Positions 16,921 through 64,000 of a stretch of DNA of 64,000 nt are shown in pieces; position 1 is the first letter of the stretch, and each line of letters begins with the position of its first letter. The DNA is from Escherichia coli (GTDB taxonomy: Bacteria; Pseudomonadota; Gammaproteobacteria; Enterobacterales; Enterobacteriaceae), in assembly GCF_016903815.1 (NCBI RefSeq), contig NZ_CP069973.1. One strand, written 5' to 3'. The position numbers were made by a program, and so were the translations under genes. Below the pieces are notes generated by a model. That model saw nothing but the letters and a program-made list of their open reading frames with translations. It ran no database searches and was not told where the DNA came from.

Positions 16921-16930
16921 TTTGCGAATC

Positions 16931-17772: not shown

Positions 17773-17806
17773 AAGTTCAATGATATTCGCTCTTGAATGT
17801 ACTGTC

Positions 17807-17827: not shown

Positions 17828-17851
17828 CAAAGTTCACATTGTGAGGGTGAT

Positions 17852-18525: not shown

Positions 18526-18602
18526 TTGAAATTAATCGTACCGAACTGTTTTGTTCGGTATCAGTTAAATGTAACGCTGCGAGCGTTACAAGGTGAAAAC
18601 AA

Positions 18603-19391: not shown

Positions 19392-19397
19392 CTGACC

Positions 19398-20144: not shown

Positions 20145-20166
20145 TTTTTACCGGGAGAAAAATTTA

Positions 20167-20928: not shown

Positions 20929-20943
20929 TTGCCGGAGGCACCT

Positions 20944-21366: not shown

Positions 21367-21527
21367 GCCAAATTAACAATCAGGGAACTGCGTGAACTGA
21401 AAGAGAAATCATAATCCAAATCTGAATAATTAAATTTAGCACTGTAAATAAAATTTAATCCTTAACCGGAGGGGGGGGCTGCACCCTCAAAATATTAGGA
21501 GGCGGCCCGAAAGGGCGGTAATGAAAA

Positions 21528-22031: not shown

Positions 22032-22111
22032 CCTGGCCTGAAGCATTCACAACGGTAGGAATTGCGATGGCGGTGGCGCTGGTGGTGTATTCGATTTGCC
22101 GCTGGGGTTGA
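22028..22111 (+). CDS. possible 27-aa single-TM peptide
   Basis: ATGA overlap with the upstream stop. Product is MTWPEAFTTVGIAMAVALVVYSICRWG. Confidence 0.3.
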   Translation: MTWPEAFTTVGIAMAVALVVYSICRWG

Positions 22112-22151
22112 TAATACTAAATAACCAGCCCTTATGGGGCTGGCTAATCAT

Positions 22152-22925: not shown

Positions 22926-23334
22926 TGAAAATTCCTCAAGTTGGAGAGTTCTGGAACATTAAGGCGAGGTGGCAGTAATGCACCATCTGTAATCTTTTGA
23001 TACTGACGTAATCGGGCCTGATGTGCAACGCCTTGCAAGTATGTAACTCATTGAAAACGATCATTTTTATCTATTGACATCAAATGGCAAACTGTCATTG
23101 TGCGGCTATGGCAAGTGGCAAATGCTTATAAATCATATGGATATAAATAGTACAGAAAGAGTTGTTTTCTCTAGGATATGAGTATACGCCCAATGCTGAT
23201 TGGTTGAATTTTGTTCTTGTTTTAAAGGGTAAGAGTTTAAAGTGTTGGCAGTGATGTATTGGATAGTTAGAATTGCTGTGGGTGCTTGAGGCTATCTGCC
23301 TCGGGCATGAACACCAAAGGTAGATAGAGAAAAG

Positions 23335-23402
23335 CCCCAGTTAACATTACGCGTCCTGCAAGACGTTTAACATTAATCTGAGGCCATATCTATGCGACAC
23401 AT
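23335..23402 (-). ncRNA. putative Sok-like antisense RNA
   Basis: The minus strand carries TTGACC, an 18-nt spacer and TAATCT opposite the mok/hok leader, by analogy to R1 hok/sok. The ends are approximate. Confidence 0.3.
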
Positions 23403-23447
23403 AGAGATTAGCCTCTTACGGACCGAAAGGTCAAGGAGAAGCAGGCT

Positions 23448-23573
23448 ATGAAGCAGCAAAAGGCGATGTTAATCGCCCTGATCGTCATCTGTTTAACCGT
23501 CATAGTGACGGCACTGGTAACGAGGAAAGACCTCTGCGAGGTACGAATCCGAACTGGCAGACGGAGGCTCTGA
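23448..23573 (+). pseudogene. hok-family (HokD/RelF-like) type I toxin gene, frameshifted and 3'-diverged
   Basis: The first 37 aa (MKQQKAMLIALIVICLTVIVTALVTRKDLCEVRIRTG) match recalled HokD. GGCAGACGGAGG appears where GGCCAGACGGAGG is expected, so a 1-nt loss gives ...RRRL stop at 41 aa. Upstream hok-type leader elements are present (GCTTGAGGCTATCTGCCTC, TAGCCTCTTAC, CAAGGAGAAG). Confidence 0.7.
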
Positions 23574-23655
23574 TTCGTAGACTACTAATCTGAGTAAAAG
23601 ACCCAGCGGGGAAAGAACCACGCCGGGACTAGTTAATAAGATATTTATAGCGTGG

Positions 23656-23997
23656 CTATTCTTTTTTTGCGGTATAGACTTTTTCGCCTGAGAAGTCTGG
23701 AGCTACCCAAAAGTTAATATTAAACTGAGCATCATCGCTTAGTTCAACACGGTGCCAGTATTGTGGTGGGCTTGTTGCAAAAGCGCCAGCATTAATGACT
23801 ACTTTTATCTCCGGTTCAGTAGCATTCTCATCAGCAAAACCATAATATGTTACAGTACCTTCCATCACGCATAACTGTCCAAAAACACCTGCTGCTGTAT
23901 TATGATGTGTTAATAACGCTGAAGGTACGTTCTCTTTTGTGAAGAACGGAGTTGAGCGTTTGATTACCCAGTCTTTAGGAATTCTCTTGTGTGTCAT
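23656..23997 (-). CDS. DUF1971 (YeaR / TehB-N-terminal-like) cupin-type protein
   Basis: 113 aa from MTHKRIPKDWVIKRSTPFFTKENVPSALLTHHNTAAGVFGQLCVMEGTVTYYGF...PPQYWHRVE...FNINFW, colinear with recalled YeaR. SD GGAGGTGG is upstream. Confidence 0.7.
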   Translation of the reverse strand: MTHKRIPKDWVIKRSTPFFTKENVPSALLTHHNTAAGVFGQLCVMEGTVTYYGFADENATEPEIKVVINAGAFATSPPQYWHRVELSDDAQFNINFWVAPDFSGEKVYTAKKE

Positions 23998-24364
23998 AAC
24001 CACCTCCCATAAAACATGCATTATAAATGCACCTTTTTGAGGGTTATGTCAAGCTGTTATGAAACACATAATTGATATGTTGATTAGAGGAGAAGATAGA
24101 ATCAATATGGTTGTTTTTCGTATAACTATTTGTTTTACTTTTAGTTTGTGCATTCTGTGTGTTAGGAATAACTTATTAAAGTTTAACTAAAAAATCTCGA
24201 TATAGTCCGCATAGATTACTGTTACTGAATCTTATTGTGTGCATTAGTTGTGTTCTGAAATTTCAATTTAATTACTTATGATATATTTTTAACGATAAAT
24301 GTTTTCCGGGTTAAAGACAGTGGGGGATGAGATAAGCAATATATCATTAATCTTGATTATTTCC

Positions 24365-24430
24365 AGGATGCCTTTACTGTGCATATAAATAAATCATATA
24401 CGCATCAAATAATGTAAAGGCATCCTTTTA
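24365..24430 (+). terminator. long hairpin plus T-run (13-bp perfect stem AGGATGCCTTTAC / GTAAAGGCATCCT)
   Basis: Stems at 24365-24377 and 24414-24426, followed by TTTTA. The T-run is only on the plus strand, so the hairpin faces the 3' end of the minus-strand peptide gene. Confidence 0.4.
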
Positions 24431-24499
24431 GATATATCTTATCAAATGTTAATGATTTGAGTGGGAAACATGATTCCAGAAACTAATCATGCGGCTACT

Positions 24500-24586
24500 T
24501 TATAAAAATAATGCCCATATAAAACAGCCAGCGAAAAGGATTACGGATAAAAAAGGAGCGAGATGTGCATAGTTGTTATTTTCCAT
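24500..24586 (-). CDS. possible 28-aa hydrophobic peptide
   Basis: Product is MENNNYAHLAPFLSVILFAGCFIWALFL, with SD AAGGTGG 6 nt upstream of the ATG. It lies in an AT-rich intergenic island. Confidence 0.4.
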   Translation of the reverse strand: MENNNYAHLAPFLSVILFAGCFIWALFL

Positions 24587-24864
24587 GTTTAACCACCTTA
24601 AATAATTGATGATGACGGGATGTGCATCTGTAATGCTTTTGTTGAAATGTTATGATAAAAAAGAACTTTTTCATAACATTAAAATGTAATTTATCTAATC
24701 GTTTTTAATAATAAGTGTTGTATTTCTATCCTTGTATCAGCTATTTGATATGTAGTGTTTGTTCATGTTATGTGGAGCTTTACACCATAGCCAGTTTATT
24801 TATACTTTATTCGTCAGCCTGAACAACTGGCATCTGCTGCACTGCGCCATCGAGAGATTGAGAA

Positions 24865-25464
24865 ATGGCGCATATACAACTGGTCAAACAAACCTCTTCT
24901 GGACTACTTCTCCCGGCGACGCCGGAGAGTTGCGATTTTTTGCATCAAATCAAAATAGGCGAGTGGATACACGCAGACTTTAAGCGTGTGCGTAACTACG
25001 CATTCCACAAGCGTTTTTTCAAACTCCTGCAACTGGGATTCGATTACTGGACTCCGGTCGGTGGGGCGATCACGCCTCGCGAACGAAAGCTGGTTTCAGG
25101 ATTCGTTGATTACCTATGTGAATCAGTAGGCCGGGAACATACGCCAGCTCTGAGCGAAGCCGCAGAGCAATATCTGAATACAGTTGCGACACGCAGAACC
25201 CGGGATACGGCATTGCTAAAGTCGTTTGAGGCTTTCCGCGAGTGGGTAACCATTCAGGCCGGATTTTACACCGAGCATCTTTATCCTGATGGTAGCCATG
25301 GGCGTCGGGCGAAATCCATCGCTTTTGCGAATATGGACGAAACCGAGTTTCAGCAGGTTTATAAATCTGTTCTGAATGTGCTGTGGAACTGGATTCTGTT
25401 CCGTAAATTTTCCTCTCCGGAACAAGTCGAAAATGTGACCGCGCAGCTGCTGGAGTTTGCGTAA
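24865..25464 (+). CDS. conserved lambdoid nin-region protein (DUF1367-like)
   Basis: 199-aa ORF with an ATGG overlap to the next gene. The family call is from memory only. Confidence 0.5.
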   Translation: MAHIQLVKQTSSGLLLPATPESCDFLHQIKIGEWIHADFKRVRNYAFHKRFFKLLQLGFDYWTPVGGAITPRERKLVSGFVDYLCESVGREHTPALSEAAEQYLNTVATRRTRDTALLKSFEAFREWVTIQAGFYTEHLYPDGSHGRRAKSIAFANMDETEFQQVYKSVLNVLWNWILFRKFSSPEQVENVTAQLLEFA

Positions 25465-39564: not shown

Positions 39565-39960
39565 ATGATCACTTACGTGACCTGTGATGACGTTGATAAT
39601 GCGTTTGGGAACGCCTGGACGAGTGAGAACGCTAAAAATAAAGCTGTTTTAATGGCTAATGCCTGGCTTAATGGCTTCAACCTGAAAATTAACCCATCCC
39701 GTATTCCGGAAGAGGTAAAACTTGCGGGAGCATATGCAGCCAGAATTGCCTCATTCGGTAAGTTGTTTCAGCAGAAAAATGATTCTGGCGTTGTTATCAG
39801 TAAAGCCGTGTCGGCTGACGGGGTCAGTGTATCGAAATCATTTTCTGAGTTGCCAGCAAACAGCACTGCATTGCTTGAACCCGATTTACAGCTTGCGATA
39901 GCACTGCTGAAACCGTACGGACTTAGTCGCTCACAAGTCAGGGTTGTGAGGGGGGGATAA
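39565..39960 (+). CDS. head-tail connector / head completion protein
   Basis: 131 aa. Position only. Confidence 0.55.
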   Translation: MITYVTCDDVDNAFGNAWTSENAKNKAVLMANAWLNGFNLKINPSRIPEEVKLAGAYAARIASFGKLFQQKNDSGVVISKAVSADGVSVSKSFSELPANSTALLEPDLQLAIALLKPYGLSRSQVRVVRGG

Positions 39961-48693: not shown

Positions 48694-51600
48694 ATGGGTA
48701 AAGGCAGCAGTAAGGGGCATACCCCGCGCGAAGCGAAGGACAACCTGAAGTCCACGCAGCTGCTGAGTGTGATCGATGCCATCAGCGAAGGGCCGGTTGA
48801 AGGTCCGGTGGATGGATTAAAAAGCGTGCTGCTGAACAGTACGCCGGTGCTGGACAGTGAGGGGAATACCAATATATCCGGCGTCACGGTGGTGTTCCGG
48901 GCCGGTGAGCAGGAGCAGACACCGCCGGAGGGATTTGAATCCTCCGGCTCCGAGACGGTGCTCGGTACAGAAGTGAAATATGACACGCCGATAACCCGGA
49001 CCATCACGTCGGCAAACATTGACCGTCTGCGTTTTACTTTCGGCGTGCAGGCACTGGTGGAAACCACCTCAAAGGGGGACAGGAATCCATCGGAAGTCCG
49101 CCTGCTGGTTCAGATACAACGTAACGGTGGCTGGGTGACGGAAAAAGACATCACCATTAAGGGTAAAACCACTTCACAGTATCTGGCCTCGGTTGTGGTG
49201 GATAACCTGCCGCCGCGCCCGTTTAATATCCGGATGCGCAGGATGACGCCGGACAGCACCACAGACCAGCTGCAGAACAAAACGCTCTGGTCGTCATACA
49301 CTGAAATCATCGATGTGAAACAGTGCTACCCGAACACGGCACTGGTCGGCGTGCAGGTGGACTCGGAACAGTTCGGCAGCCAGCAGGTGAGCCGTAATTA
49401 TCATCTTCGCGGGCGCATTCTGCAGGTGCCATCGAACTATAACCCGCAGACTCGGCAATACAGCGGTATCTGGGACGGAACGTTTAAGCCAGCATACAGC
49501 AATAACATGGCCTGGTGTCTGTGGGATATGCTGACCCATCCACGCTACGGCATGGGGAAACGTCTTGGTGCGGCGGATGTGGACAAATGGGCGCTGTATG
49601 TCATCGGCCAGTACTGCGACCAGTCAGTGCCGGACGGCTTTGGCGGCACGGAGCCGCGCATCACCTGTAATGCGTACCTGACCACACAGCGCAAGGCGTG
49701 GGATGTGCTCAGTGATTTCTGTTCGGCGATGCGCTGTATGCTGGTATGGAACGGGCAGACGCTGACGTTCGTGCAGGACCGACCGTCGGATAAGGTGTGG
49801 ACCTATAACCACAGTAATGTGGTGATGCCGGATGATGGCGCGCCGTTCCGCTACAGCTTCAGCGCCCTGAAGGACCGCCATAATGCCGTTGAGGTGAACT
49901 GGATTGACCCGGATAACGGCTGGGAGACGGCGACAGAGCTTGTTGAAGATACGCAGGCCATTCTCCGTTACGGTCGTAACGTCACGAAGATGGATGCCTT
50001 TGGCTGTACCAGCCGGGGGCAGGCGCACCGCGCCGGGCTGTGGCTGATTAAAACGGAACTGCTGGAAACGCAGACCGTGGACTTCAGCGTGGGTGCCGAA
50101 GGGCTTCGCCATGTACCGGGCGATGTCATTGAAATCTGTGATGATGACTATGCCGGTATCAGCACCGGTGGTCGCGTGCTGGCGGTGAACAGCCAGACCC
50201 GGACGCTGACGCTCGACCGTGAAATCACGCTGCCATCCTCCGGTACCACGCTGATAAGCCTGGTTGACGGAAGTGGTAATCCGGTCAGCGTGGAGGTTCA
50301 GTCCGTCACCGACGGACTTAAGGTGAAAGTGAACCGGGTTCCTGACGGCGTTGCAGAATACAGTGTGTGGGGGCTGAAGCTGCCGACGCTGCGCCAGCGC
50401 CTGTTCCGCTGTGTGAGTATCCGTGAGAACGATGACGGCACGTATGCCATCACTGCCGTGCAGCATGTACCGGAAAAAGAAGCCATCGTGGATAACGGGG
50501 CGCACTTTGACGGCGACCAGAGCGGCACGGTGAATGGTGTCACGCCGCCAGCGGTGCAGCACCTGACCGCCGAAGTCACCGCAGACAGCGGGGAATATCA
50601 GGTGCTGGCGCGCTGGGACACGCCGAAGGTGGTGAAGGGCGTGAGCTTCCTGCTTCGCCTGACCGTGGCAGCGGATGACGGCAGTGAGCGGCTGGTCAGC
50701 ACGGCCCGGACGACGGAAACCACATACCGCTTCACGCAACTGGCGCTGGGGCGGTACACGCTGACAGTCCGGGCGGTAAATGCGTGGGGACAGCAGGGCG
50801 ATCCGGCGTCGGTATCGTTCCGGATTGCCGCACCGGTAGCACCGTCGCGGATTGAGCTGACGCCGGGGTATTTTCAGATAACCGCCACGCCGCATCTTGC
50901 CGTTTATGACCCGACGGTACAGTTTGAGTTCTGGTTCTCGGAAAAGCGGATTACCGATATCAGGCAGGTTGAAACCACAGCCAGCTATCTTGGCACGGGG
51001 CTGTACTGGATAGCCGCCAGTATCAATATCAAACCGGGCCATGATTATTATTTTTACGTTCGCAGTGTGAACACCGTTGGCAAATCGGCATTCGTGGAGG
51101 CTGTTGGTCAGCCGAGTGATGATGCATCCGGCTATCTGGATTTTTTCAAAGGCGAGATAGGGAAAACCCATCTGGCTCAGGAGCTGTGGACGCAGATTGA
51201 TAACGGTCAGCTTGCGCCTGACCTGGCTGAAATCAGGACGTCCATTACGGATGTCAGCAATGAAATCACGCAGACCGTCAATAAGAAACTGGAAGACCAG
51301 AGTGCAGCGATCCAGCAGATACAGAAGGTTCAGGTTGATACAAATAATAACCTGAACAGCATGTGGGCAGTGAAGCTGCAGCAGATGCAGGACGGACGCC
51401 TTTATATTGCGGGTATCGGTGCCGGTATTGAGAACACCCCCGACGGCATGCAGAGTCAGGTGCTGCTGGCGGCGGACAGGATTGCGATGATTAATCCTGC
51501 GAATGGCAACACAAAGCCGATGTTTGTTGGTCAGGGCGATCAGATATTCATGAATGAAGTGTTCCTGAAATATCTGACGGCTCCCACCATTACCAGCGGC

Positions 51601-52173
51601 GGTAATCCTCCGGCATTTTCCCTGACACCGGACGGGCGACTGACGGCGAAAAATGCCGATATCAGCGGTAGCGTGAATGCGAACTCCGGGACGCTCAACA
51701 ACGTCACGATTAACGAGAACTGTCGGGTTCTGGGAAAACTGTCCGCGAACCAGATTGAAGGCGATCTCGTTAAAACAGTGGGCAAAGCTTTCCCCCGGGA
51801 CTCCCGTGCACCGGAGCGGTGGCCATCAGGGACCATTACCGTCAGGGTTTATGACGATCAGCCGTTTGACCGGCAAATTGTTATTCCAGCGGTGGCTTTC
51901 AGCGGTGCCAGACATGAACGGGAGAATAGCGATACTTATTCGTCATGCCGCCTGATAGTGAAGAAAAACGGGGCTGAAATTTATAACCGAACGGCTCTGG
52001 ATAATACTCTGATTTACACGGGTGTTATTGATATGCCTGCAGGCAGTGGCGTAATGACACTGGAGTTTTCTGTATCAGCATGGTGGGTAAATGGCTGGTA
52101 TCCCACAGCAAGTATCAGCGATTTGCTGGTTGTTGTGATGAAGAAAGCCACTGCAGGCATCACGATTAGCTGA
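48694..52173 (+). CDS. tail tip / host-specificity protein J
   Basis: 1159 aa, colinear with lambda gpJ ([34 protein letters not shown]...). Confidence 0.95.
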
Positions 52174-52191
52174 ATTTTATAACCCAGATAC

Positions 52192-52216
52192 GGGCGCCAG
52201 AAATGGCGCCTTTTTT
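52192..52216 (+). terminator. rho-independent terminator after J
   Basis: GGCGCC-agaaat-GGCGCC followed by TTTTTT. Confidence 0.65.
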
Positions 52217-52240
52217 ATTGCAGAAAAGCGAGAGGTAATT

Positions 52241-52840
52241 ATGCGTAAATTATGTGCTGTTATTCTGTCCACAGTAGTCTGGCTGGTCGCCGCTGGTACG
52301 CCAGCGAGCGCAGCAGAGCATCAGTCCACACTAAGCGCCGGGTATCTTCAGACCCATACTGATATGCCCGGCAACGATGACCTGAAGGGCATTAACGTGA
52401 AATACCGTTATGAATTTACGGACACGCTGGGGCTGGTGACGTCATTCAGTTATGCCAATGCCAAAGATGAGCAAAAAACGCATTACAGCGATACCCGCTG
52501 GCATGAAGATTCAGTGCGTAACCGCTGGTTCAGCATGATGGCGGGGCCGTCTGTACGCGTGAATGAATGGTTCAGTGCTTATGCGATGGCAGGTGTGGCT
52601 TACAGCCGTGTTTCAACTTTTTCCGGGGATTATCTCCGCGTAACTGACAGCAAGGGGAAAACGCACGATGTGCTGACCGGAAGTGATGACGGTCGCCACA
52701 GCAACACGTCTCTGGCGTGGGGGGCTGGCGTGCAGTTTAACCCGACCGAATCCGTGGCCATTGATATTGCTTATGAAGGCTCCGGCAGTGGTGACTGGCG
52801 CACTGACGGTTTCATCGTGGGTGTCGGTTATAAATTCTGA
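52241..52840 (+). CDS. lomR: Lom/Ail-family outer-membrane beta-barrel protein
   Basis: 199 aa with a signal peptide (VVWLVAAGTPASA) and the C-terminal ...GVGYKF typical of OMPs. Confidence 0.9.
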   Translation: MRKLCAVILSTVVWLVAAGTPASAAEHQSTLSAGYLQTHTDMPGNDDLKGINVKYRYEFTDTLGLVTSFSYANAKDEQKTHYSDTRWHEDSVRNRWFSMMAGPSVRVNEWFSAYAMAGVAYSRVSTFSGDYLRVTDSKGKTHDVLTGSDDGRHSNTSLAWGAGVQFNPTESVAIDIAYEGSGSGDWRTDGFIVGVGYKF

Positions 52841-52866
52841 TTAGCCAGGTAACACAGTGTTATGAC

Positions 52867-52893
52867 AGCCCGCCGGTTCAGGCGGGCTTTTTT
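52867..52893 (+). terminator. rho-independent terminator after lom
   Basis: AGCCCGCC-ggttca-GGCGGGCT followed by TTTTTT. Confidence 0.7.
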
Positions 52894-52904
52894 GTGGAGT
52901 GGAT

Positions 52905-55304
52905 ATGGCAGCAGTAAAAATCTCAGGTGTGCTGAAAGATTGTGCGGGAAAACCAATACAGAACTGCACTATTCAACTGAAGGCAAAGCGTAACAGCACC
53001 ACGGTACTGGTGAACACGGTGGCCTCTGAAAATCCGGATGAAGCCGGGCGTTACAGCATGGATGTTGAGCATGGCCAGTACAGCGTCATCCTGCTGGTTG
53101 AAGGTTTTCCGCCTTCACATGCCGGGACCATTACCGTCTATGAAGGCTCCAGACCAGGTACGCTGAATGATTTTCTCGGTGCCATGACGGAAGAGGATGT
53201 CATGCCGGAGGCATTGCGTCGTTTTGAGGCAATGGTGGAAGAAGTGGCACGCAACGCCGAAGCCGCCTCTCAGAGCGCAGCGGCGGCAAAGAAATCCGAA
53301 ACTGCAGCGGCATCATCGAAGAACGCGGCGAAAACCTCAGAAACGAATGCAGCTAATAGTGCACAGGCGGCAGCGACCTCAAAGACTGCATCGGCAAACT
53401 CTGCGACAGCAGCCAAAAAATCAGAAACCAACGCGAAAAACAGTGAGACAGCCGCAAAGACGAGCGAAACCAACGCAAAGTCCAGCCAGACGGCAGCGAA
53501 AACCAGCGAAACGAATGCCAAAGCCAGTGAAACTGCGGCAAAAAACAGCCAGGCTGCAGCAGCTGAAAGCGAGAGCGCGGCAGCCGGTTCTGCGACTTCA
53601 GCAGCTGGATCAGCAACTGCTGCGGCTAACAGCCAGAAAGCTGCGAAGACGAGTGAAACTAACGCAAAGTCCAGCCAGACGGCAGCGAAGACCAGCGAAA
53701 CGAATGCCAAAGCCAGTGAAACTGCGGCGAAAAGCAGTCAGGATGCAGCGGCCCAAAGCGAGAGTGCCGCAGCCAGTTCTGCAAGCGCGGCGGCTGCTTC
53801 TGCCACTGCATCAGCTAACAGTCAAAAAGCAGCAAAAACCAGTGAAACCAACGCAAAGGTGAGCGAAACAGCGGCTGCGAACTCAGCGAAAGCATCGGCA
53901 GCAAGCCAGACGGCAGCTAAAGCAAGCGAAGATGCAGCCAGAGAGTACGCAAGCCAGGCTGCGGAGCCGTATAAATATGTCTTACAGCCGCTGCCTGATG
54001 TGTGGATACCATTTAACGATTCGCTGGATATGATTACGGGCTTTTCGCCATCATATAAAAAAATTGTTATTGGTGATGATGAAATAACGATGCCTGGCGA
54101 CAAGGTTGTTAAGTTTAAACGCGCATCAACTGCCACATATATCAATAAATCAGGCGTATTTAGTGTTGCTAAAATTGATGAGCCACGATTTGAAAAAGAA
54201 GGTTTATTGATTGAAGGACAGCGCACTAACTATTTTGTTAAATCCAATACTCCCGCTGAATGGACGAGTACCAGCAATATCGATAAAACTAATAATGGTG
54301 TTGATGAATTTGGTTTTTCATATGCCAAAATGCGAACAAAAGATAATATGACAGGACAATCATCTGCACTTAGTCTGCATACATGCAGTGCATCCCGGGG
54401 GATTGATGTTAGTGGCGATAATAAGTATTGCACTGTTTCATGCAGGGTTAAAGCTCCTGATGGTCTTCGTTGTCGTTTGCGTTTTGAAAAATACGATGGG
54501 TCGGTTTATACATTTTTAGGAGATGCTTATTTAACTTTCGGAACTCTGATAATAGAAAAAACTGGCGGGGCAGCCAATAGAATAGCAGCTACTGCAACTA
54601 AAGATCCGGTTACAGGGTGGATTTTCTATGAGGCAACTATAGAAGCTGTTGAAGGTGAAACCTTAATTGGCGCAATGATTCAGTATGCGCCGAAAAAAGG
54701 TGGTATAACTGAAGCGGGAGATTATATTTACCTTGCAACACCACAATTTGAAAACGGCGGATGTGCTTCATCTTTTGTTATTACGACAACTGCACCCGCA
54801 ACCCGCTCCAGTGATATGGTGACGATCCCAACTGAAAATAATATCTATAATAGACCGCTTACGTGTCTTGTCGAGGTTAATAGAAATTGGGGCGATATTC
54901 CTCCTAATGTAGCACCGCGTATTTTTGATTTTTCTGGTGTGCCACCTATTGAGTCAATTACATACGCTTTTAACACAACTGAGAAATATTACGGTCAGCT
55001 TTATATGCAAACTTATAAAGCGTCGACAAGTACTTACGTTTCTAGTGTGTTTGCTGGTCGAGCTGATGTTCGAAAATTCATTGGTGGTTTTAATATTTAT
55101 TCTGATGGTACTAAACGAGTAGTTTCTAACGGTGAGGCTACTAAAACTATGAAAACGGAGTGGACGGGCGTAAAAACACGGACCTTTATTCGAATTGGAG
55201 GTCAAGCCACATCGGGAACTCGTCATCTATTCGGCCATTTGAGAAATCTTCGTCTCTGGCATAAAGAATTAACTGATGCGCAAATGGGGGAGAGTATTAA
55301 ATGA
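52905..55304 (+). CDS. side tail fibre protein (Stf family) with a divergent C-terminal receptor-binding region
   Basis: 799 aa. It has the lambda Stf-like N-terminus (MAAVKISGVLKDCAGKPIQNCTIQLKAKRNSTT...), an Ala/Ser/Thr-rich repeat shaft and a distinct C-terminal 400 aa. Confidence 0.85.
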   Translation: MAAVKISGVLKDCAGKPIQNCTIQLKAKRNSTTVLVNTVASENPDEAGRYSMDVEHGQYSVILLVEGFPPSHAGTITVYEGSRPGTLNDFLGAMTEEDVMPEALRRFEAMVEEVARNAEAASQSAAAAKKSETAAASSKNAAKTSETNAANSAQAAATSKTASANSATAAKKSETNAKNSETAAKTSETNAKSSQTAAKTSETNAKASETAAKNSQAAAAESESAAAGSATSAAGSATAAANSQKAAKTSETNAKSSQTAAKTSETNAKASETAAKSSQDAAAQSESAAASSASAAAASATASANSQKAAKTSETNAKVSETAAANSAKASAASQTAAKASEDAAREYASQAAEPYKYVLQPLPDVWIPFNDSLDMITGFSPSYKKIVIGDDEITMPGDKVVKFKRASTATYINKSGVFSVAKIDEPRFEKEGLLIEGQRTNYFVKSNTPAEWTSTSNIDKTNNGVDEFGFSYAKMRTKDNMTGQSSALSLHTCSASRGIDVSGDNKYCTVSCRVKAPDGLRCRLRFEKYDGSVYTFLGDAYLTFGTLIIEKTGGAANRIAATATKDPVTGWIFYEATIEAVEGETLIGAMIQYAPKKGGITEAGDYIYLATPQFENGGCASSFVITTTAPATRSSDMVTIPTENNIYNRPLTCLVEVNRNWGDIPPNVAPRIFDFSGVPPIESITYAFNTTEKYYGQLYMQTYKASTSTYVSSVFAGRADVRKFIGGFNIYSDGTKRVVSNGEATKTMKTEWTGVKTRTFIRIGGQATSGTRHLFGHLRNLRLWHKELTDAQMGESIK
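53457..53880 (+). repeat. tandem 189-bp (63-codon) repeats within stf, about 2.2 copies
   Basis: Units start at 53457 and 53646 (AAGACGAG(C/T)GAAAC(C/T)AACGCAAAGTCCAGCCAGACGGCAGCGAA...), with a partial third unit from 53835. Confidence 0.8.
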
Positions 55305-55582
55305 AAGATTTAACACTCAAATTTGCAGACAGGGCCGACTTTTCGGCCTTTATGGAGAGCATTGGCTATTATGATGACGAGTCGATGCAGGATGATATTC
55401 TTATTGACGTGATAGGTAATGTGTACAAAGAAACCGGAGAACTTACTGAAGATGGCGAGCCGGTATGTGTTAAGGAGGACGGATATTTTGTAAATGTGCG
55501 CATCATTAATGATTCGCAAATATCGTCATTATTCGATGAACACGCGGTTGCTGTTGAGCATCAACTCCGTAGCTGGATGTGA
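55301..55582 (+). CDS. hypothetical acidic protein downstream of stf
   Basis: 93 aa, with an ATGA overlap with the stf stop. No Tfa-family similarity recognised. Confidence 0.5.
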   Translation: MKDLTLKFADRADFSAFMESIGYYDDESMQDDILIDVIGNVYKETGELTEDGEPVCVKEDGYFVNVRIINDSQISSLFDEHAVAVEHQLRSWM

Positions 55583-55591
55583 GGAAGAAAA

Positions 55592-56296
55592 ATGGCTACA
55601 TCGACAGTAATTCCTGATGACATCAAAACGCTAAAGGGAGATGTCAGTAAGGCAAAGGAAGATATTTCCTCAATTAACGTAAAAGTATCAACGCTTCAGA
55701 CTGATATGGACAGTGCAAAGCAGGATATCAGTACCAGATACACAAAAACAGAAGTGGATAATAAGCTGAAAAACAAAGTGGAAGTGAACGATCTGGAAAG
55801 TGGTCGTTATGGCGGAGATTTTTACCCGCTGACTGGCCGTGAAGCGTTTTATTTATGGGGATTGGGCACAACTACAGCGGCGGCAAATCTTTATCTTAAT
55901 CCTGACCCTGCAATTTCGTCTGTGCTGCGGTCAACATCGTCTATCCGCTATAAACATTCAGTAGAGACGATAGATTCAGAGCACGCCGATCTCATTTTCA
56001 GGATGCGCCCTGTGTGGTACAGGTCGCAATGCGAAAATGACAGGCGTGACTGGGGATTCTATGGATTGATTGCCGAGGAAGTAGGAGAAATTGCCCCTCA
56101 GTTTGTTCACTGGCGACCAGCCAACGAAGATGATGCACCGGAAACCATTTCCAGCAATGGCCTTGTTGCCGAAGGTGTAATGTACGAACGTCTGGTTGTT
56201 CCACTGATTCACCATATCCAGAAGCTGACTGAAAGAGTTGATGAACTTGAGTCAGAATTAAAGTTGTTATCCGTTTCCCGAAGCGATATCGGATAA
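55592..56296 (+). CDS. short tail-fibre-like protein with a C-terminal intramolecular chaperone (peptidase S74-like) domain
   Basis: 234 aa with an N-terminal coiled coil. The C-terminal segment SSIRYKHSVETI...FYGLIAEEV...ERLVVPLIHHIQKLTERVDELE resembles the endosialidase/T5 pb1 auto-cleaving chaperone domain. Confidence 0.65.
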   Translation: MATSTVIPDDIKTLKGDVSKAKEDISSINVKVSTLQTDMDSAKQDISTRYTKTEVDNKLKNKVEVNDLESGRYGGDFYPLTGREAFYLWGLGTTTAAANLYLNPDPAISSVLRSTSSIRYKHSVETIDSEHADLIFRMRPVWYRSQCENDRRDWGFYGLIAEEVGEIAPQFVHWRPANEDDAPETISSNGLVAEGVMYERLVVPLIHHIQKLTERVDELESELKLLSVSRSDIG

Positions 56297-56306
56297 AGGA
56301 GGCGTA

Positions 56307-56600
56307 ATGGATATAACACCTTTCCTTCATGCACTTTGTGCTGTGGCTGCGCAGGTACTGGTTGGTCTTTTTACCGGAAACTGGGCTTACGGGGCGATAG
56401 CTGGTTGTACGTTCTTCATTGCGCGTGAACATACCCAGGCAGAATATCGCTGGATTGAAATGTTCGGGCATGGCAAGCGAATGAATATGCCGTGGTGGGG
56501 CGGTTTTGATCCGCGTGCGTGGGATGTGGCAAGCCTGATGGATTTTGCTGTGCCGGTGGTGGCGTGTCTGCTGGTCTGGCTGTTGGTTAATCGTGGGTGA
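56307..56600 (+). CDS. hypothetical 3-TM membrane protein
   Basis: 97 aa with SD AAGGAGG upstream. It is the last gene of the fibre cassette. Confidence 0.55.
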   Translation: MDITPFLHALCAVAAQVLVGLFTGNWAYGAIAGCTFFIAREHTQAEYRWIEMFGHGKRMNMPWWGGFDPRAWDVASLMDFAVPVVACLLVWLLVNRG

Positions 56601-56614
56601 AAAAAGGTGAGCTG

Positions 56615-56730
56615 TATATGCAACGGAGGAAGAAACCTCGTTGCGGGAAGCCTGGAAGAAGTATCGGGTGTTGCTGAACCGTGTTGATACGTCAACTGCA
56701 CAGATATTGAATGGCCAGCACTGCCGTAGG
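56615..56730 (+). pseudogene. 3' remnant of a tail-fibre assembly (Tfa-family) gene
   Basis: It reads ...[26 protein letters not shown], then a 1-nt loss breaks the expected (D)IEWPALP-stop ending. There is no upstream Tfa coding sequence. Confidence 0.55.
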
Positions 56731-56826
56731 GTAAAACATATAAATTCTATAATTAGATGTATCTTTCCATTTACGGCAAGGAAGGGGGCTTGGAAGACGT
56801 AAGGCATCTCACACCGAGATTATTTT

Positions 56827-57418
56827 TTATATGTCAGGTGTCTGAAGTTTTGCTTTGGCTCTTAAAATGGTTTGCCGCGAGGTTTTGAATTCCCGGGCAA
56901 TGGCACTTATACTTACACCTGACTTAATCCGTTCGAATACCACCTGTTTCTGTTCTTCATTTAACACAGGTGGTCGACCAAAACGTTTCCCTGCGCCCCG
57001 GGCTCTTACTATCCCGGAATGAGTGCGTTCAAGTAAAAGGTCTCGTTCAAATTCAGCGACTGCTGAAATTACTTGCATCATCATTTTTCCTGTTGGACTG
57101 GTCAGGTCAATGCCCCCCCAATGCTAAGCAATGCACTCTGATACCTGTTTCGGTCAGTTGTTCCACTGTTTTCCTGATATCCATTGCATTACAACCAAGG
57201 CGATCCAGTTTTGTCACAATCAATTGATCACCACATTTCAGGCGAGCAAGCAACCGGTTAAAACCAGGACGCTCACTGGTTGCTGCTGAGCCGCTAATGT
57301 GTTCTTCGATTATTTGCTGAGGTTTGATTTTAAAACCTGCACTTTCGATTTCCCGGCGTTGATTTTCGGTGGTCTGATCCAGCGTTGATATCCGACAGTA
57401 AGCAAAAATTCGAGACAT
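56827..57418 (-). pseudogene. pin: Pin-family serine DNA invertase, frameshifted in a G7 (C7 on the plus strand) run
   Basis: The N fragment (57107..57418) ends ...VHCLALGGH-stop. The C fragment [21 protein letters not shown]...HTH lies in another frame. Removing one G from 57113-57119 restores ...[16 protein letters not shown]..., as in PinQ/PinR. Confidence 0.85.
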
Positions 57419-57734
57419 AGTGAGACTCTATACGAAATTGGTGCTCATATCATAATGCATCTCAGAAAATAATTTTGATTATTTTTGTGCATGTTTGTAT
57501 GTACACGTTCGAAAATAAACGAATGCGTATGCAACCCCGTAATTTTGGTGAGACCCAAAATCGATTTTGTGAAAAATGGCTTTAACTCGGTTTGTTTTTC
57601 GAGTTCCGGGCGGACTCAAGGAAGAAGAATAGTGTTGCGTGTTATTTTAACCAGATTTCAAGTTGTTTGGTCGTGGAAAAGTGGAGCAAAATGTTGTTAA
57701 AGTGGAAAAATGATAAAAAAGTAAGTTTATTATA

Positions 57735-57968
57735 TTACATTTTACCATTTAAATTTTGGTTGTCTTTAAGAGCTGATATCGCTGTTTGTAATAATTCTTT
57801 GTTATCCAGCCATGATTTTTTCTTTATGTTTCCTTCAATGTAATCAAGCAATGTTCTGGTATTGATAGGTCTTCCCTGTTTTGCTACTTCCACTACAGCA
57901 TCCCCTAGGATAATTCTGACTTCAGGAAGCTGCGCAGGGAACCACTTTAGGGTGTCTTTTGATTTCAT
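57735..57968 (-). CDS. ydfK: YdfK/YnaE family prophage protein (cold-shock inducible in K-12)
   Basis: 77 aa from MKSKDTLKWFPAQLPEVRIILGDAVVEVAKQGRPINTRTLLDYIEG.... Confidence 0.85.
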   Translation of the reverse strand: MKSKDTLKWFPAQLPEVRIILGDAVVEVAKQGRPINTRTLLDYIEGNIKKKSWLDNKELLQTAISALKDNQNLNGKM

Positions 57969-58753
57969 GAATATATTCCTTAAAATATTATTGATTTTCA
58001 TTGCGATATTGTATGTCTGATTCAGGATATGTTGACTTATACATCGGTTTTGTCTGGGTTATTGGATATGCCAATCCCTAATTTTATTAGAGCATGACTA
58101 AAAATGCTGAATATGATAAGGAGCGAAGTGATTATCAGTATGCTGTTCATATAGCCTCGAATTAGTAATGTGTTATATATGATATAGTTGACAATTTTTA
58201 TCCTGGGTGTTCTTAAAGTTCGTAGATAAACATTGTCGTTTCAGGTATACAGGAATGCTAACAGATGGCGGCAAAAATCAGGCGGTTTATGGCGCAAGCT
58301 GAAGTGGCAACTGCAAACTATCTTATGCAGAGACTCTACACGGATTGGGTTTAAAAGTATACATAGATAACAGTTTTTATCTGAAGAAGAAAAATATCAA
58401 GGTGATATAGCCTATATGCCTTTGATGCGGAGGAATGAATGTGATGGGAGTGATGTATCTGAATAGTTGAAAAACCGCAGACACGCCTTATGCAAGAACG
58501 TGCTGCGGTTGGCTGGTAAATTTTTCGATAGTGCGAGTATTGAATGATTTCCAGCCGTTATTGATTTTACGCGTAACTCCATGAAAAAACTACTTATCTG
58601 TTGAGGAGTTTTTTTGGGGCATATATGGGACAGAAATAGGCCCCAGATAGACACTGAGATCGAACTTAGGATGCTTTTTAAAAAATGCAACTATCTGAAA
58701 AAACCTAGAAAACGCCAAGGAAACCACAGGATGGGAAAAAACACCTGTGAATT

Positions 58754-60037
58754 ATGGATTTCCAGTTATATTCGCTCGGCGCAGCGTTAGTGTTTCATGA
58801 AATATTTTTTCCTGAATCATCAACGGCAATGGCGTTAATTCTGGCAATGGGAACCTACGGTGCAGGTTATGTGGCGCGTATTGTCGGAGCATTTATTTTC
58901 GGCAAAATGGGCGACAGAATCGGGCGTAAAAAAGTGCTCTTTATTACCATCACCATGATGGGGATCTGTACCACCTTAATTGGTGTGCTGCCGACCTATG
59001 CACAAATTGGTGTGTTTGCGCCAATTTTGCTGGTGACGCTGCGTATTATTCAGGGGCTGGGGGCAGGCGCGGAAATTTCCGGTGCCGGCACGATGCTGGC
59101 GGAATATGCACCAAAAGGTAAGCGCGGAATTATCTCCTCATTTGTTGCTATGGGGACTAACTGCGGAACCTTGAGCGCAACGGCAATCTGGGCCTTTATG
59201 TTCTTCATTCTCAGTAAAGAGGAACTGCTGGCGTGGGGATGGCGTATACCGTTCCTGGCGAGCGTTGTCGTGATGGTCTTTGCTATCTGGTTGCGTATGA
59301 ATCTGAAAGAAAGCCCGGTCTTTGAGAAGGTTAACGACAGCAACCAACCGACAGCAAAACCTGCACCTGCTGGTAGCATGTTCCAGAGCAAATCCTTCTG
59401 GCTGGTAACAGGGCTGCGTTTTGGTCAGGCTGGTAACTCCGGTTTAATTCAGACTTTCCTTGCAGGCTATTTAGTGCAGACGTTATTGTTTAACAAAGCA
59501 ATTCCAACAGGTGCATTGATGATCAGTTCGATTCTCGGCTTTATGACCATTCCGTTCCTTGGTTGGTTATCCGATAAAATTGGTCGCCGGATCCCGTATA
59601 TTATTATGAATACCTCTGCGATTGTGCTGGCGTGGCCAATGCTTTCTATCATCGTAGATAAAAGCTATGCCCCGAGCACCATTATGGTTGCACTGATTGT
59701 GATTCATAACTGTGCGGTGCTGGGATTATTTGCTCTGGAAAACATTACCATGGCAGAAATGTTCGGCTGTAAAAACCGCTTTACCCGGATGGCTATTTCT
59801 AAAGAAATTGGTGGTCTTATCGCTTCCGGTTTTGGTCCTATCCTGGCGGGTATTTTCTGCACCATGACGGAATCCTGGTATCCGATCGCCATTATGATCA
59901 TGGCATATTCAGTGATTGGTTTAATCTCTGCGCTGAAAATGCCAGAAGTGAAAGACCGTGATTTAAGTGCGCTGGAAGACGCTGCGGAAGATCAACCGCG
60001 TGTTGTCAGAGCTGCGCAACCTTCCATAAGTCTTTAA
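58754..60037 (+). pseudogene. ydfJ: MFS transporter YdfJ, 5'-truncated at the prophage junction
   Basis: 427-aa ORF starting at the internal MDFQLYSLGAALVFHEIFFPESS.... About 28 N-terminal codons of the ancestral gene are absent, and similarity to ydfJ begins around 58745. Confidence 0.8.
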
Positions 60038-60125
60038 ATCCTCAATCCCTTCTCTTACCGGAGAGGGGATTTTTATTCATATAACAAAACATGTAGCTTG
60101 CCATATTTATATTTAAGGAATTGTT

Positions 60126-61586
60126 ATGGGAAATAATTTGTTATCAGCAAAAGCGACACTCCCTGTTTATGATCGTAATAACCTGGCCCCAAGAATTGTT
60201 CATTTAGGCTTTGGTGCATTTCACCGTGCGCATCAGGGCGTGTATGCCGATATTCTTGCTACGGAACATTTCAGTGACTGGGGATATTATGAGGTCAACT
60301 TAATCGGCGGCGAACAGCAAATTGCCGATTTACAACAGCAAGATAATCTTTATACCGTTGCGGAAATGTCGGCCGATGCGTGGACGGCTCGCGTCGTTGG
60401 CGTCGTTAAAAAAGCCTTGCACGTACAGATTGATGGCTTAGAAACCGTGTTGGCTGCGATGTGTGAACCGCAAATCGCGATTGTCTCTCTGACAATCACC
60501 GAAAAAGGGTATTTCCACTCTCCGGCGACCGGACAGTTAATGCTCGATCACCCGATGGTCGTTGCCGACGTACAAAATCCCCACCAGCCGAAAACTGCAA
60601 CAGGGGTGATTGTCGAGGCGCTGGCTCGCCGTAAAGCGGCAGGACTTCCCGCATTTACCGTCATGTCATGTGACAACATGCCAGAAAACGGTCATGTTAT
60701 GCGTGACGTTGTCACTTCCTACGCGCAAGCTGTTGATGTAAAACTGGCACAATGGATCGAAGAAAACGTGACTTTCCCATCAACAATGGTGGACCGTATT
60801 GTGCCCGCAGTGACAGAGGATACGCTGGCGAAAATCGAACAACTTACCGGTGTGCGCGATCCTGCTGGCGTTGCCTGTGAACCTTTCCGCCAGTGGGTAA
60901 TAGAAGATAACTTTGTTGCCGGACGTCCGGAATGGGAAAAAGCGGGAGCCGAACTGGTTAGTGATGTGCTGCCTTATGAAGAGATGAAGTTGCGCATGCT
61001 CAACGGCAGTCATTCATTCCTGGCGTATCTGGGGTATCTTGCCGGATATCAGCACATTAATGACTGCATGGAAGATGAACATTATCGTCATGCAGCGTAT
61101 GCCTTGATGTTGCAGGAACAAGCGCCGACGTTGAAAGTGCAGGGCGTTGATTTGCAAGATTACGCTAACCGATTAATTGAACGCTATAGCAACCCGGCGC
61201 TACGTCATCGAACCTGGCAGATTGCGATGGATGGCAGCCAGAAATTGCCACAGCGGATGTTGGATTCTGTTCGCTGGCATCTGGCGCATGACAGCAAGTT
61301 CGATCTGCTGGCGCTGGGCGTCGCAGGTTGGATGCGTTATGTCGGTGGTGTTGATGAACAGGGAAATCCGATAGAAATCAGTGACCCACTGTTACCTGTT
61401 ATTCAGAAGGCTGTACAAAGTAGTGCCGAAGGGAAAGCGCGCGTCCAGTCATTGCTGGCGATTAAGGCGATCTTTGGTGATGATTTGCCAGACAATAGCT
61501 TGTTTACTGCAAAAGTGACGGAAGCGTACTTGTCTTTATTAGCGCATGGTGCGAAAGCGACCGTGGCGAAATATTCCGTGAAGTAA
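60126..61586 (+). CDS. ydfI: mannitol-dehydrogenase-family oxidoreductase YdfI
   Basis: 486-aa ORF with the N-terminal Rossmann motif [13 protein letters not shown]. Confidence 0.9.
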
Positions 61587-61614
61587 AAAAAGCAATGCCG
61601 CCATCGGCGGCATT
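61584..61614 (-). terminator. rho-independent terminator of ydfZ (hairpin shared with the ydfI 3' end)
   Basis: AATGCCGCC-atc-GGCGGCATT. On the minus strand it is followed by T7. Confidence 0.65.
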
Positions 61615-61621
61615 CACACGC

Positions 61622-61825
61622 TTAGTTCATGCCGAGACGAATCAGGTCCAGAGGTGCCAGTTTCTCTTCACAACCTTCAACAACTACGGTTTTTCCGCGG
61701 CGGATTTGCTCAGCGGTCAGACCTTCAGTATCAATCGACAGGATCTTGCCAGTGTGACCGGTGCCGCTAACCATAACACGGCTGCCAGTGGTGATTGCGT
61801 TACGGTTACGATCGTAGGTCGTCAT
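61622..61825 (-). CDS. ydfZ: YdfZ (small selenium-binding protein)
   Basis: 67 aa, [36 protein letters not shown].... Confidence 0.85.
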
Positions 61826-62002
61826 AGGTGTTTTCTCCTTTCTGATTTACAGTCGAAGCCCACGTAACGGGCGCAATATAAATACTCCTGTCGAGTGAAA
61901 TATTTTTTGTTTTTGATCAAGCTCACATCTTTTTTGATGCATGCATGAGCCATAAGGCGGGGCGAATAGACTCTCACCCCGGATGGGATGAGAGGAAATG
62001 AA

Positions 62003-62689
62003 TTACTCTTCGCTAAACCAGTCGCTGTTTTCCTGACGGATCTGGCGCACGGATTCGCTGATTTCCTGCAAATGTTGCGTCATTGCACGTTCTACCGCAT
62101 CGCCATCACGTTTTTGCAGGGCAGAGAAAATCTCAAGATGCTGGCGTAACAGCATTTCTGGTGGAGAAACGTGGTCGAAACTCATATAGCGCACGCGATC
62201 AACGGTCGCTTTCAGGTTCTCAATGGTATCCCACGCCAGTTGACAGTCGGCAATCTGGGTCAGGAGTTGATGGAAGTTGTCATCAAGTTCAAAAAAATCA
62301 TCCAGTTGCTTGCGCTCTATGGCAATGCGTTGCTGGTGAAGATTTTGTTCCAGTTGGTAGCACTGGCTTTCGGTAATCATGCTCGCCGCCCGACGCGCCA
62401 CCGCGCACTCAATGGCCTGACGGATAAAACTGCCGTTGCGCACCTGGGCCATGGAAATTTTGTTGACGTAGCTGCCACGCTGCGGACGAATTTGAATCAG
62501 GCCGTTTTCCGCCAGTTTAATAAAGGCTTCACGAACCGGCTGGCGTGACACATTGAAACGAACAGAAACTTCTTTTTCCGACAACGGTGTGCCTGGTGCA
62601 ATCAGGCAATGGACAATGTCGCGACGAAGAATACGATAAATCTGCTGATTGACAGGCTGTGTGGGATTAAGTTGCGTTTCGACGGTCAT
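62003..62689 (-). CDS. ydfH: GntR-family transcriptional regulator YdfH (RspR)
   Basis: 228 aa with an N-terminal wHTH ([39 protein letters not shown]) and an FCD domain. Confidence 0.9.
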
Positions 62690-62777
62690 TCGTTCTTGCT
62701 TGTGAGTGAGTTAACTGCATGAGTCTACCACTTTTTTGTGACAAGCAATAACCCGGCAGTTACGCCGGGTATAAAAA

Positions 62778-63524
62778 TTACTGACGGTGGACATTCAGTC
62801 CGGCATAGCTTTGGGTAACCGGCATCATTTCCAGGGTATTGATATTGACGTGAGCAGGCAGCGTTGACACCCACCAGACGGCTTCGCTGACATCTTCTGG
62901 CGTCAATGCAACGGTATTTTGATAGGTTTTTTCCGCTTTACCGTCATCGCCTTTAAAGCGGACATTGGAAAACTCGGTGCCACCCACCAGACCCGGCTCG
63001 ATGTCGGTGACGCGCACCGCCGTACCATGCAGGTCCGTACGCAGATTCAGGCTAAACTGACGAACAAACGCTTTCGTCGCACCGTAAACGTTACCACCGG
63101 CATACGGCCAGCTGCCTGCCGTTGAGCCAATGTTAATAATATGACCATGATTACGTTCAACCATACCCGGTAAGACGGCGCGCGTCATATATACTAGGCC
63201 TTTGTTGTTGGTATCAATCATCGTTTCCCAGTCTTCAACGCTGGCTTTATGCGCAGGCTCCATGCCCAACGCCAGACCGGCATTATTTACCAGGATATCA
63301 ATATTGCACCACTCGGCAGGAAGCGATGCCAGCATCTCTTCAATAGCGGCGCGGTTGCGAACGTCCAGTTGGGCGATATACAGATTATCTCCCAGTTCGT
63401 CTTTTAACTCCTGCAACCGCTCCTGGCGACGGCCAGTGGCGATAACTTTATGCCCTTGTTGAATAAAACGACGAGTAATGCATTCACCAAAACCTGCCGT
63501 TGCTCCAGTTACTAAAACGATCAT
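62778..63524 (-). CDS. ydfG: NADP-dependent 3-hydroxy acid dehydrogenase YdfG (SDR)
   Basis: 248 aa from MIVLVTGATAGFGECITRRF..., with the YxxxK catalytic motif (YGATK). Confidence 0.9.
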   Translation of the reverse strand: MIVLVTGATAGFGECITRRFIQQGHKVIATGRRQERLQELKDELGDNLYIAQLDVRNRAAIEEMLASLPAEWCNIDILVNNAGLALGMEPAHKASVEDWETMIDTNNKGLVYMTRAVLPGMVERNHGHIINIGSTAGSWPYAGGNVYGATKAFVRQFSLNLRTDLHGTAVRVTDIEPGLVGGTEFSNVRFKGDDGKAEKTYQNTVALTPEDVSEAVWWVSTLPAHVNINTLEMMPVTQSYAGLNVHRQ

Positions 63525-63660
63525 CTCACTGTTCCTCAACGCTTTTGTGTGTCAATAACATAGCACGTGATGCTTAAGAGCGGGTAATACTGGTTTGCAA
63601 GATTGCACTCCGTTATCAGTAAGCCTACGCTATGGAACACCTCGCGTTCAGGAGAAGAAA

Positions 63661-64000
63661 ATGACAACAATGAATCCTTTCCTTGTGCAAAGCACACTGC
63701 CGTATCTGGCTCCCCATTTTGATCAAATTTCCAATCATCACTATCGCCCGGCATTCGATGAGGGAATGCTGCAAAAGCGGGCAGAAATTACTGCCATCGC
63801 GCTTAACCCGCAAACGCCTGATTTCAACAATACTATTCTGGCACTGGAACAAAGCGGAGAATTACTTACCCGCGTTACCAGCGTCTTTTTTGCGATGACT
63901 GCGGCGCATACCAATGATGAATTACAGCGTCTTGATGAACAGTTTTCCGCTGAACTGGCGGAACTGGCTAATGATATCTATCTGAACGGTGAATTATTCG
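63661..64000 (+). CDS. dcp: dipeptidyl carboxypeptidase Dcp, 5' part (runs off the window)
   Basis: Open frame from ATG 63661: MTTMNPFLVQSTLPYLAPHFDQISNHHYRPAFDEGMLQKRAEI.... There is no stop before the window end. Confidence 0.85.
   Translation, partial: MTTMNPFLVQSTLPYLAPHFDQISNHHYRPAFDEGMLQKRAEITAIALNPQTPDFNNTILALEQSGELLTRVTSVFFAMTAAHTNDELQRLDEQFSAELAELANDIYLNGELF

Follow-up and report, generated by a model that had tools for sequence, protein, structure and literature searches.

A probable young slippage pseudogene of the prophage recombinase gene pinQ at a recurrently mutated G run in Escherichia coli ST405

Introduction

Does one additional G in a short homopolymer really break a prophage recombinase gene of Escherichia coli, and, if it does, is the break ordinary decay, the off state of a reversible switch, or an error of sequencing? 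The question is raised by pinQ, which lies within the 64,000-nucleotide stretch of contig NZ_CP069973.1 analyzed here (the window) and whose two halves are read in different frames across a run of seven G. An earlier note on this DNA had attributed the break to a +1 change in that run and had offered toggling, decay of an orphan gene, and a read error as possible explanations. The reading that we favor, with a probability of about 0.78, is that pinQ is an ordinary young slippage pseudogene at a mutational hotspot, clonally inherited in a sub-lineage of ST405.

Results

One extra G separates two reading frames of pinQ

Read directly, the minus strand from 57124 to 57107 is GCATTGGGGGGGCATTGA, that is, GCA TTG GGG GGG CAT TGA, exactly as first reported. 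The features that make up the lesion are as follows.

56827..57418, minus strand: pinQ pseudogene of 592 nt, a serine recombinase gene of the lambdoid prophage at the Qin (ydfJ) site
57113..57119, minus strand (C7 on the plus strand): G7 homopolymer with the +1 lesion; the wild type is G6, read UUG GGG GGC (Leu-Gly-Gly)
57107..57418, minus strand: N-terminal ORF of 103 aa, ending ...LALGGH* at 57107 (ORF list)
56827..57084, minus strand: C-terminal ORF of 85 aa in another frame, starting MMMQVISAV..., with helix E and HTH_7 (ORF list; HTH_7 from Pfam on the called product)

With one G removed in silico, pinQ measures 591 nt and encodes 196 aa, and this repair agrees with the Pfam assignments in supporting what the earlier note had proposed, namely, that G6 joins the two fragments into a PinQ/PinR-type serine recombinase. 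The claim that pinQ is inactivated by a +1 change in the G run also stands, with the 103-aa and 85-aa ORFs both seen. Tract lengths of G6 and G9 keep the gene in frame, and G5, G7, and G8 put it out of frame. The 103-aa ORF holds the core of the catalytic domain with Arg9, Ser11, Asp72, and Arg73 and lacks both helix E and the DNA-binding domain; the 85-aa C-terminal ORF is probably not made. A sigma-70-like match on the minus strand (57110-57083; TTGACC, a spacer of 16 nt, AAAAAT) begins directly past the homopolymer and shortly precedes the start codon (ATG) of the 85-aa ORF; it is weak and a consensus match only.

Runs of at least seven G or C occur only three times in the whole window, and the other two, both within this prophage, break no gene: a G8 run at 21471-21478 is intergenic, upstream of an ORF at 21528, and a G7 run at 39950-39956 lies at the stop of ORF 39565-39960 and acts as the Shine-Dalgarno sequence of the next gene (ATG at 39960). 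The significance of the run in pinQ is the disruption of an otherwise perfect gene, rather than the run as such.

The extra G is not a miscall

Tract lengths were counted as exact matches to 65- to 68-nt probes centered on the run, across the 2,639 complete E. coli records that hold the stretch.

G6: 2,026 of 2,639 records (a lower bound)
G7: 26 of 2,639 records
G5: 13 of 2,639 records
G8: 0 of 2,639 records

By these complete-genome counts, G6 makes up about 99% of copies; it is the ancestral and by far the most common form. The predicted products of the tract variants were also looked up, by exact identity, in a collection of 15 billion proteins, where no G4 product was found.

G7 product, 103 aa: 743 contigs (NCBI, ENA, and Logan sources)
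G5 product, 104 aa: 288 contigs
G8 product, 105 aa: 8 contigs
G9 product, in frame, 197 aa: 5 contigs

The index entry of the G7 product comprises 976 blocks, and its contigs include the Broad Institute assemblies BIDMC 77 and KTE41, which we take to be short-read assemblies. The complete genomes with G7 originate from the USA, Sweden, Norway, Egypt, Pakistan, Taiwan, and the Czech Republic and include Korea-named strains.

An artefact of homopolymer calling in sequencing or assembly, with the gene really intact, would have some precedent, since homopolymer indels are common in long-read assemblies; a second 1-nt indel lies nearby in the window, and the G5 of the laboratory strain GB2005 could be such an error. 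Against this stand the 26 complete genomes from many laboratories and countries and the 743 contigs with the exact G7 product from three kinds of source, as well as the fact that G7 tracks lineage markers. Moreover, G6 is the call in more than 2,000 genomes that share the identical 66-nt context, hence there is no systematic miscall. Because the allele is restricted to lineages, comes from many laboratories, and has so many same-context genomes reading G6 beside it, a miscall cannot account for it. The read error considered in the earlier note is thereby effectively refuted, and the G7 lesion is real.

The repaired protein is a small serine recombinase

Pfam finds two domains in the repaired 196-aa protein, Resolvase at residues 4-144 (E = 2.5e-36) and HTH_7 at residues 147-190 (E = 3.8e-11), and the protein belongs unambiguously to the small serine recombinase class (PF00239 plus PF02796). 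Its N-terminal catalytic domain has the serine nucleophile: in an alignment with Gin and gamma-delta resolvase, Ser11 of YCRISTLDQ occupies the position of their catalytic Ser. The best matches among solved structures are to the Gin invertase (4m6f and 3uj3, E about 3e-29) and to gamma-delta/Tn3 resolvase, and the protein is 100% identical to the recombinase of the functional lambdoid phages mEp460, 2H10, HannyBb, Tritos, and PhiR63_1. In the window itself, catalytic domain, helix E, and HTH do not share a single frame (the break is at 57113-57119) and do so only after one G is removed. Alignment to Gin and gamma-delta resolvase places the frame break immediately ahead of helix E and of the conserved IDxSSP motif leading into it, so that the run does lie inside the catalytic domain, as had been stated, at its very end rather than in its middle.

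Set against the active-site arginines R8, R68, and R71 of gamma-delta resolvase, Arg9 and Arg73 are present, and the R71 position is taken by Cys76 (KLDRLGC; codon 76, window 57191-57193, minus strand); the corresponding Arg, in the motif KLDRLGR, is conserved in Gin, PinE, and gamma-delta/Tn3 resolvase. Cys76 is common to every PinQ/PinR copy identical to the repaired protein, which is odd given the activity reported for PinQ of K-12.

Prophage context and structural variation around pinQ

A 1-kb query around pinQ has matches in 2,873 of 5,426 complete E. coli genomes. The gene order at the Qin site is truncated ydfJ' followed by ynfT, ydfK, pinQ, a convergent tfa remnant, tail-fiber genes, lom, and J, and the neighbors referred to below are the following.

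56620..56729, plus strand: remnant of a tail-fiber assembly (tfa) gene, its last ~36 codons, convergent with pin (RefSeq, "frameshifted; missing N-terminus")
57735..57968, minus strand: ydfK (cold-shock protein), upstream of pin, carrying a SNP nested inside the deltaC group
58754..60037, plus strand: ydfJ', with its 5' end cut off by the prophage, marking the right end of the prophage (Qin attachment site; ORF list and RefSeq annotation)

Compared with PinQ (Qin) and PinR (Rac) of K-12 and with the phage recombinases, the window gene sits at the Qin site in the same order (ydfJ', ynfT, ydfK, pinQ, tfa); it differs in having G7 instead of G6 and making no full protein, in a tfa gene reduced to a 36-codon remnant, and in a different tail-fiber module. 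A 1-nt deletion (CC to C, here deltaC) lies in the tfa remnant at about 56702, at a distance of 400 nt from the homopolymer. In strains 222, 103, 7/2, AR_0015, and others, RefSeq labels the gene "pinQ recombinase family protein, frameshifted", and it annotates an intact WP_000086527.1 in G6 relatives that are otherwise identical.

The surroundings of pinQ are structurally variable. In the 801-aa tail-fiber ORF (52899-55304, plus strand), we observe a long internal array of AAKTSETNAK-like repeats, and RefSeq splits this ORF into an N-terminal pseudogene and a "head spike fiber domain" protein whose lengths vary among isolates. In many genomes of the lineage, the prophage left of ~46626 (in the tail genes) is not contiguous with the right part, with only query 7626-25000 found in one place. 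This structural variant (query 1-7625 missing in many genomes) was dropped as a phylogenetic marker because its state flips, strains 103 and 222 having equal chromosome length and different variants, which suggests recombination between resident lambdoid prophages. A "711-bp longer form" of the prophage region was likewise dropped, since it reflects IS200C insertions at different sites. The isolates also differ in IS traffic around the locus: in one Houston isolate, ydfK and ynfT are separated by an IS1, and an IS200C follows ydfJ', and strains 1579 and FDAARGOS_1279 have an IS200C beside lom, at two different sites. About 38-40 kb to the right of pin, a deletion in the lsr region fuses lsrC' to lsrK' in most lineage genomes, with lsrA and lsrR lost; AR_0067 keeps the whole lsr operon and served to polarize the tree.

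No evident local substrate beside pinQ

With respect to a possible substrate, inverted repeats in 50000-58800 are at chance level only, with no crossover sites or invertible segment beside pin; the crossover core AAACCNNGGTTT (AAACC-NN-GGTTT) is absent near pin, and the e14 pix site, retrieved from K-12 with the other e14 sites for comparison, has no match with up to three mismatches anywhere in the window. The intact phage mEp460, which has an identical pin gene, shows the same layout, with stf-tfa convergent with pin, and has neither a second tail-fiber set nor crossover-type inverted repeats or the core motif. A native invertible segment next to pinQ was therefore rejected as a candidate, and these negative site searches in the window and in mEp460 indicate PinQ-type recombinases without an evident local substrate.

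The description of pinQ as an orphan gene accordingly holds for its immediate neighborhood, where crossover sites and a segment are missing, and does not extend to action at a distance, as PinQ of K-12 is reported to be active in trans (PMC12529663). According to that 2025 report, K-12 PinQ, 38% identical to PinE, inverts the 1,797-bp P segment of e14, which yields a chimeric StfE2, blocks T2 adsorption, and protects K-12 against phage T2; the inversion has a growth cost on FadL substrates and reverts without phage, and an enhancer is unmentioned (PMC12529663). With a chimeric query, we find one stretch of a pinE-like (Din-type) invertase gene elsewhere on the chromosome of strains 103 and 222, outside the window, and the K-12 stfE'/pixR flank was not detected in the lineage at megablast level.

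Point mutations in pinQ and pinR have been described elsewhere, and we observe that R3Q in PinR and Q3R in PinQ after phage exposure are reciprocal (PMC11297538, PMC12549603, PMC12844343), a pattern that suggests cross-mapping or gene conversion between near-identical paralogues rather than new mutations. The window PinQ has Arg3, and the R3/Q3 contrast may be no more than a fixed difference between the paralogues. As precedents for the tract, the literature mutations (R3Q, Q3R, and A159V) were set aside, none of them being in the G tract.

The G run is mutated recurrently across E. coli

The 13 genomes with G5 belong to clearly different backgrounds, including STEC, APEC, frog isolates, and a K-12 laboratory derivative, and their gene is annotated pinQ or pinR. 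A comparison of contigs places G7 on three pin haplotypes in three contexts.

Context 1: the ST405 type
Context 2: IS1414 directly after pin, in 1332KP and one Broad assembly, with a chromosomal flank ~2% divergent from ST405
Context 3: a prophage beside prfC, osmY, and dinI, in an NCTC assembly

These three haplotypes in three contexts imply that G6 changed to G7 at least three times, and the spread of G5 suggests about ten changes from G6 to G5 in other backgrounds. Such recurrence fits the exponential climb of the indel rate with run length (PMC8510543). The run in pinQ is an ordinary recurrent mutational hotspot.

History of the tract inside ST405

The closest record to the window is strain 103 (Boston, urine), identical over 55516-64000, and the lineage is ST405, as KY1497 and WCHEC4533 are described as ST405. 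G7 is present, without a second lesion, in 25 ST405 complete genomes, roughly 25 of at least 60 sampled, or about 40%. There are 0 further differences among the ST405 G7 copies in 592 nt, and, with the rest of the gene undecayed, the allele is young.

For the history of the allele, ~50 kb (pin and its chromosomal flank) was compared from 10 G7 and 7 G6 genomes, with a further 50 kb from six of key interest. Divergence within the lineage is low, at about 5 SNPs per 44 kb. Exactly 8 complete genomes carry the deltaC deletion of the tfa remnant, and every one has G7; the ydfK SNP, nested in this group, is shared by strains 103 and 98224, and site 45921, nested further, marks strain 103 alone. This nested series of deltaC, ydfK, and 45921 shows that G7 has been stably inherited through several successive mutations.

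A different pattern emerges at site 45379, where a synonymous G-to-A SNP lies in the ECSE_1600 autotransporter gene and A is derived, since the outgroup has G. The derived allele occurs in 28 of 3,530 records, all in the ST405 lineage, of which 22 are G7 and the following six G6.

G6 members of the 45379A clade: WCHEC4533, WCHEC96200, WCHEC000837, EC190329, TOE51, and Ec-U14-1

Conversely, three G7 genomes of the lineage, elppa9, FDAARGOS_1281, and 2900, lie outside the 45379A matches, with the ancestral G read from fetched sequence in elppa9 and FDAARGOS_1281 (strain 2900 being outside the fetched set). All four combinations of 45379 and tract thus exist, which requires at least two tract changes in ST405, barring recombination within the lineage. 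The second 50 kb from the six key genomes contains private SNPs only and no informative site, and the tree is star-like; in 100 kb there is one informative conflict, at site 45379, and the direction of the tract changes is thus not read from it. Among roughly 2,600 genomes, the change from G6 to G7 was seen in just two further backgrounds, so a history in which G7 arose once, ahead of 45379A, and the six G6 genomes later lost the additional G appears more plausible than two to four independent gains. From the one site available, slippage could account for G6 in these six genomes, as could recombination with a phage whose pin gene is an identical G6 copy. The turnover in ST405 exceeds what is expected of a strictly one-off neutral lesion, so that real toggling, or selection favoring either loss or restoration, may play a part.

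Discussion

An ordinary slippage pseudogene weighed against a switch, recoding, and selection

For the earlier suggestion that pinQ could toggle, these data point both ways: relatives mix G6 and G7, the G7 copies have no further lesions, and at least two changes occurred inside ST405; on the other hand, the run is short, G6 accounts for about 99% of copies, and G7 is stable through nested markers. We observe neither a uniform G6 nor a G7 fixed in relatives together with further disabling mutations. Read as a genuine ON/OFF contingency switch, slippage in the G6/G7 run would reversibly toggle PinQ and an inversion-based phage defense as bet-hedging. Like simple sequence repeat (SSR) phase variation in Neisseria, Haemophilus, Campylobacter, and Helicobacter, pinQ has an in-frame G run whose length decides between ON and OFF, with G5, G6, G7, G8, and G9 all found in nature and with repeated changes within one clone, the fewest and likeliest events there being one gain and then G7 to G6 in the six 45379A members. 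The reported protection and cost of PinQ-driven inversion would also be a setting where switching pays. Unlike in SSR phase variation, however, the run is only 6 to 7 nt and one length dominates, G8 is absent from complete genomes, the deltaC, ydfK, and 45921 series shows stable inheritance of G7, and the apparent reversion depends on one SNP and would also result from recombination with the identical G6 pin of a related phage. Classical contingency loci have tracts longer than 6 to 7 nt, and E. coli is not known for contingency tracts of that kind. We consider a contingency switch unlikely, and give no higher probability to a version in which the run slowly and reversibly switches a prophage recombinase that controls an inversion-based anti-phage defense elsewhere in the genome, PinQ being off in ST405 sub-lineages and on again in the six G6 members of the 45379A clade. 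Revertibility is a property of any short homopolymer and no evidence for an evolved switch.

Continued expression of the G7 gene by recoding, through a +1 slip of tRNA-Gly on G GGG GGG or through transcriptional slippage, which would suffice if little protein were made because invertases act in very few copies, is very unlikely. The sequence would allow it, in that a GGG-to-GGG +1 slip re-pairs perfectly and gives the exact wild-type protein, and the G-rich, Shine-Dalgarno-like run followed by CAU and UGA-C presumably bears a loose resemblance to the prfB +1 site. Slippage that occurs spontaneously at sites of this kind is normally well below 1%, though, and a prfB-like programmed +1 frameshift is expected to be conserved, while 2,026 records here have the in-frame G6 against 26 with G7. 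Recoding is made unlikely by this lack of conservation of the shifted arrangement, with about 99% of relatives in frame, unlike in any programmed frameshift. Positive selection for PinQ loss in ST405, an adaptive inactivation for which the hotspot only supplied the mutation, has a somewhat better claim and is still quite improbable. It would fit the frequency of G7 in the clone across several continents, the recurrence of G5 and G7 loss alleles in many lineages, and the reported cost of P-segment inversion for growth on FadL substrates (PMC12529663). Hitch-hiking in an expanding clone fits that frequency equally well, ST405 sub-lineages with G6 have been no less successful, and neither an e14 pix site in the window nor, at megablast level, an stfE'/pixR flank was found.

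As an ordinary slippage pseudogene, pinQ would owe its state to one replication-slippage event that added a G to the G6 run encoding Gly101-Gly102. The ribosome would then stop two codons past the G7 run, leaving at most a 103-aa fragment, and since this fragment is without helix E, which provides the dimer and tetramer interface, and without the HTH DNA-binding domain, no recombinase is produced. Whatever PinQ does would be lost with it, in K-12 reportedly the stimulation in trans of e14 P-segment inversion; this loss may be buffered by the Din-type pinE-like gene that the genome carries elsewhere. The lesion could revert by slippage or be repaired through recombination with a related phage. 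This is in line with other slippage pseudogenes of prophage remnants, which show the same single homopolymer indel in an accessory gene and the same PGAP label "frameshifted"; unlike the typical case, pinQ is without secondary decay, has a recently reported host-level function, and is hit recurrently at one site.

Comparison with the Din family

PinQ shares fold and chemistry with the Din-family invertases Gin (Mu), Cin (P1), Hin (Salmonella), and PinE (e14), having the Ser nucleophile and the DRLG motif. It is nevertheless distant from them, with only about 38% identity to PinE (PMC12529663), despite the cross-action on the e14 P segment reported for K-12 PinQ, and has Cys76 in place of the conserved Arg. 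The inverted crossover sites of ~26 bp (TTCTCCCAAACC type, with the AAACC-NN-GGTTT core) and the adjacent segment that characterize the family were not found at the window pin.

Implications for ST405 and for E. coli

PinQ was reported only in 2025 as an active recombinase that protects K-12 from T2 through an inversion in another prophage, and we observe here that a natural null allele of its gene circulates worldwide in a large fraction of the multidrug-resistant, high-risk clone ST405, with the same short G run mutated repeatedly across E. coli. For annotation, the lesson is that the lesion in pinQ is real and no homopolymer miscall, and otherwise ordinary slippage decay. If the switch reading were true, the locus would be a natural case of homopolymer-mediated bet-hedging atop site-specific inversion in E. 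coli. The G6 and G7 isolates of ST405 are ready near-isogenic pairs for testing the role of PinQ, and, should PinQ prove relevant to phage resistance among clinical strains, the sensitivity of an isolate to T-even-like therapeutic phages would be predictable from its tract length.
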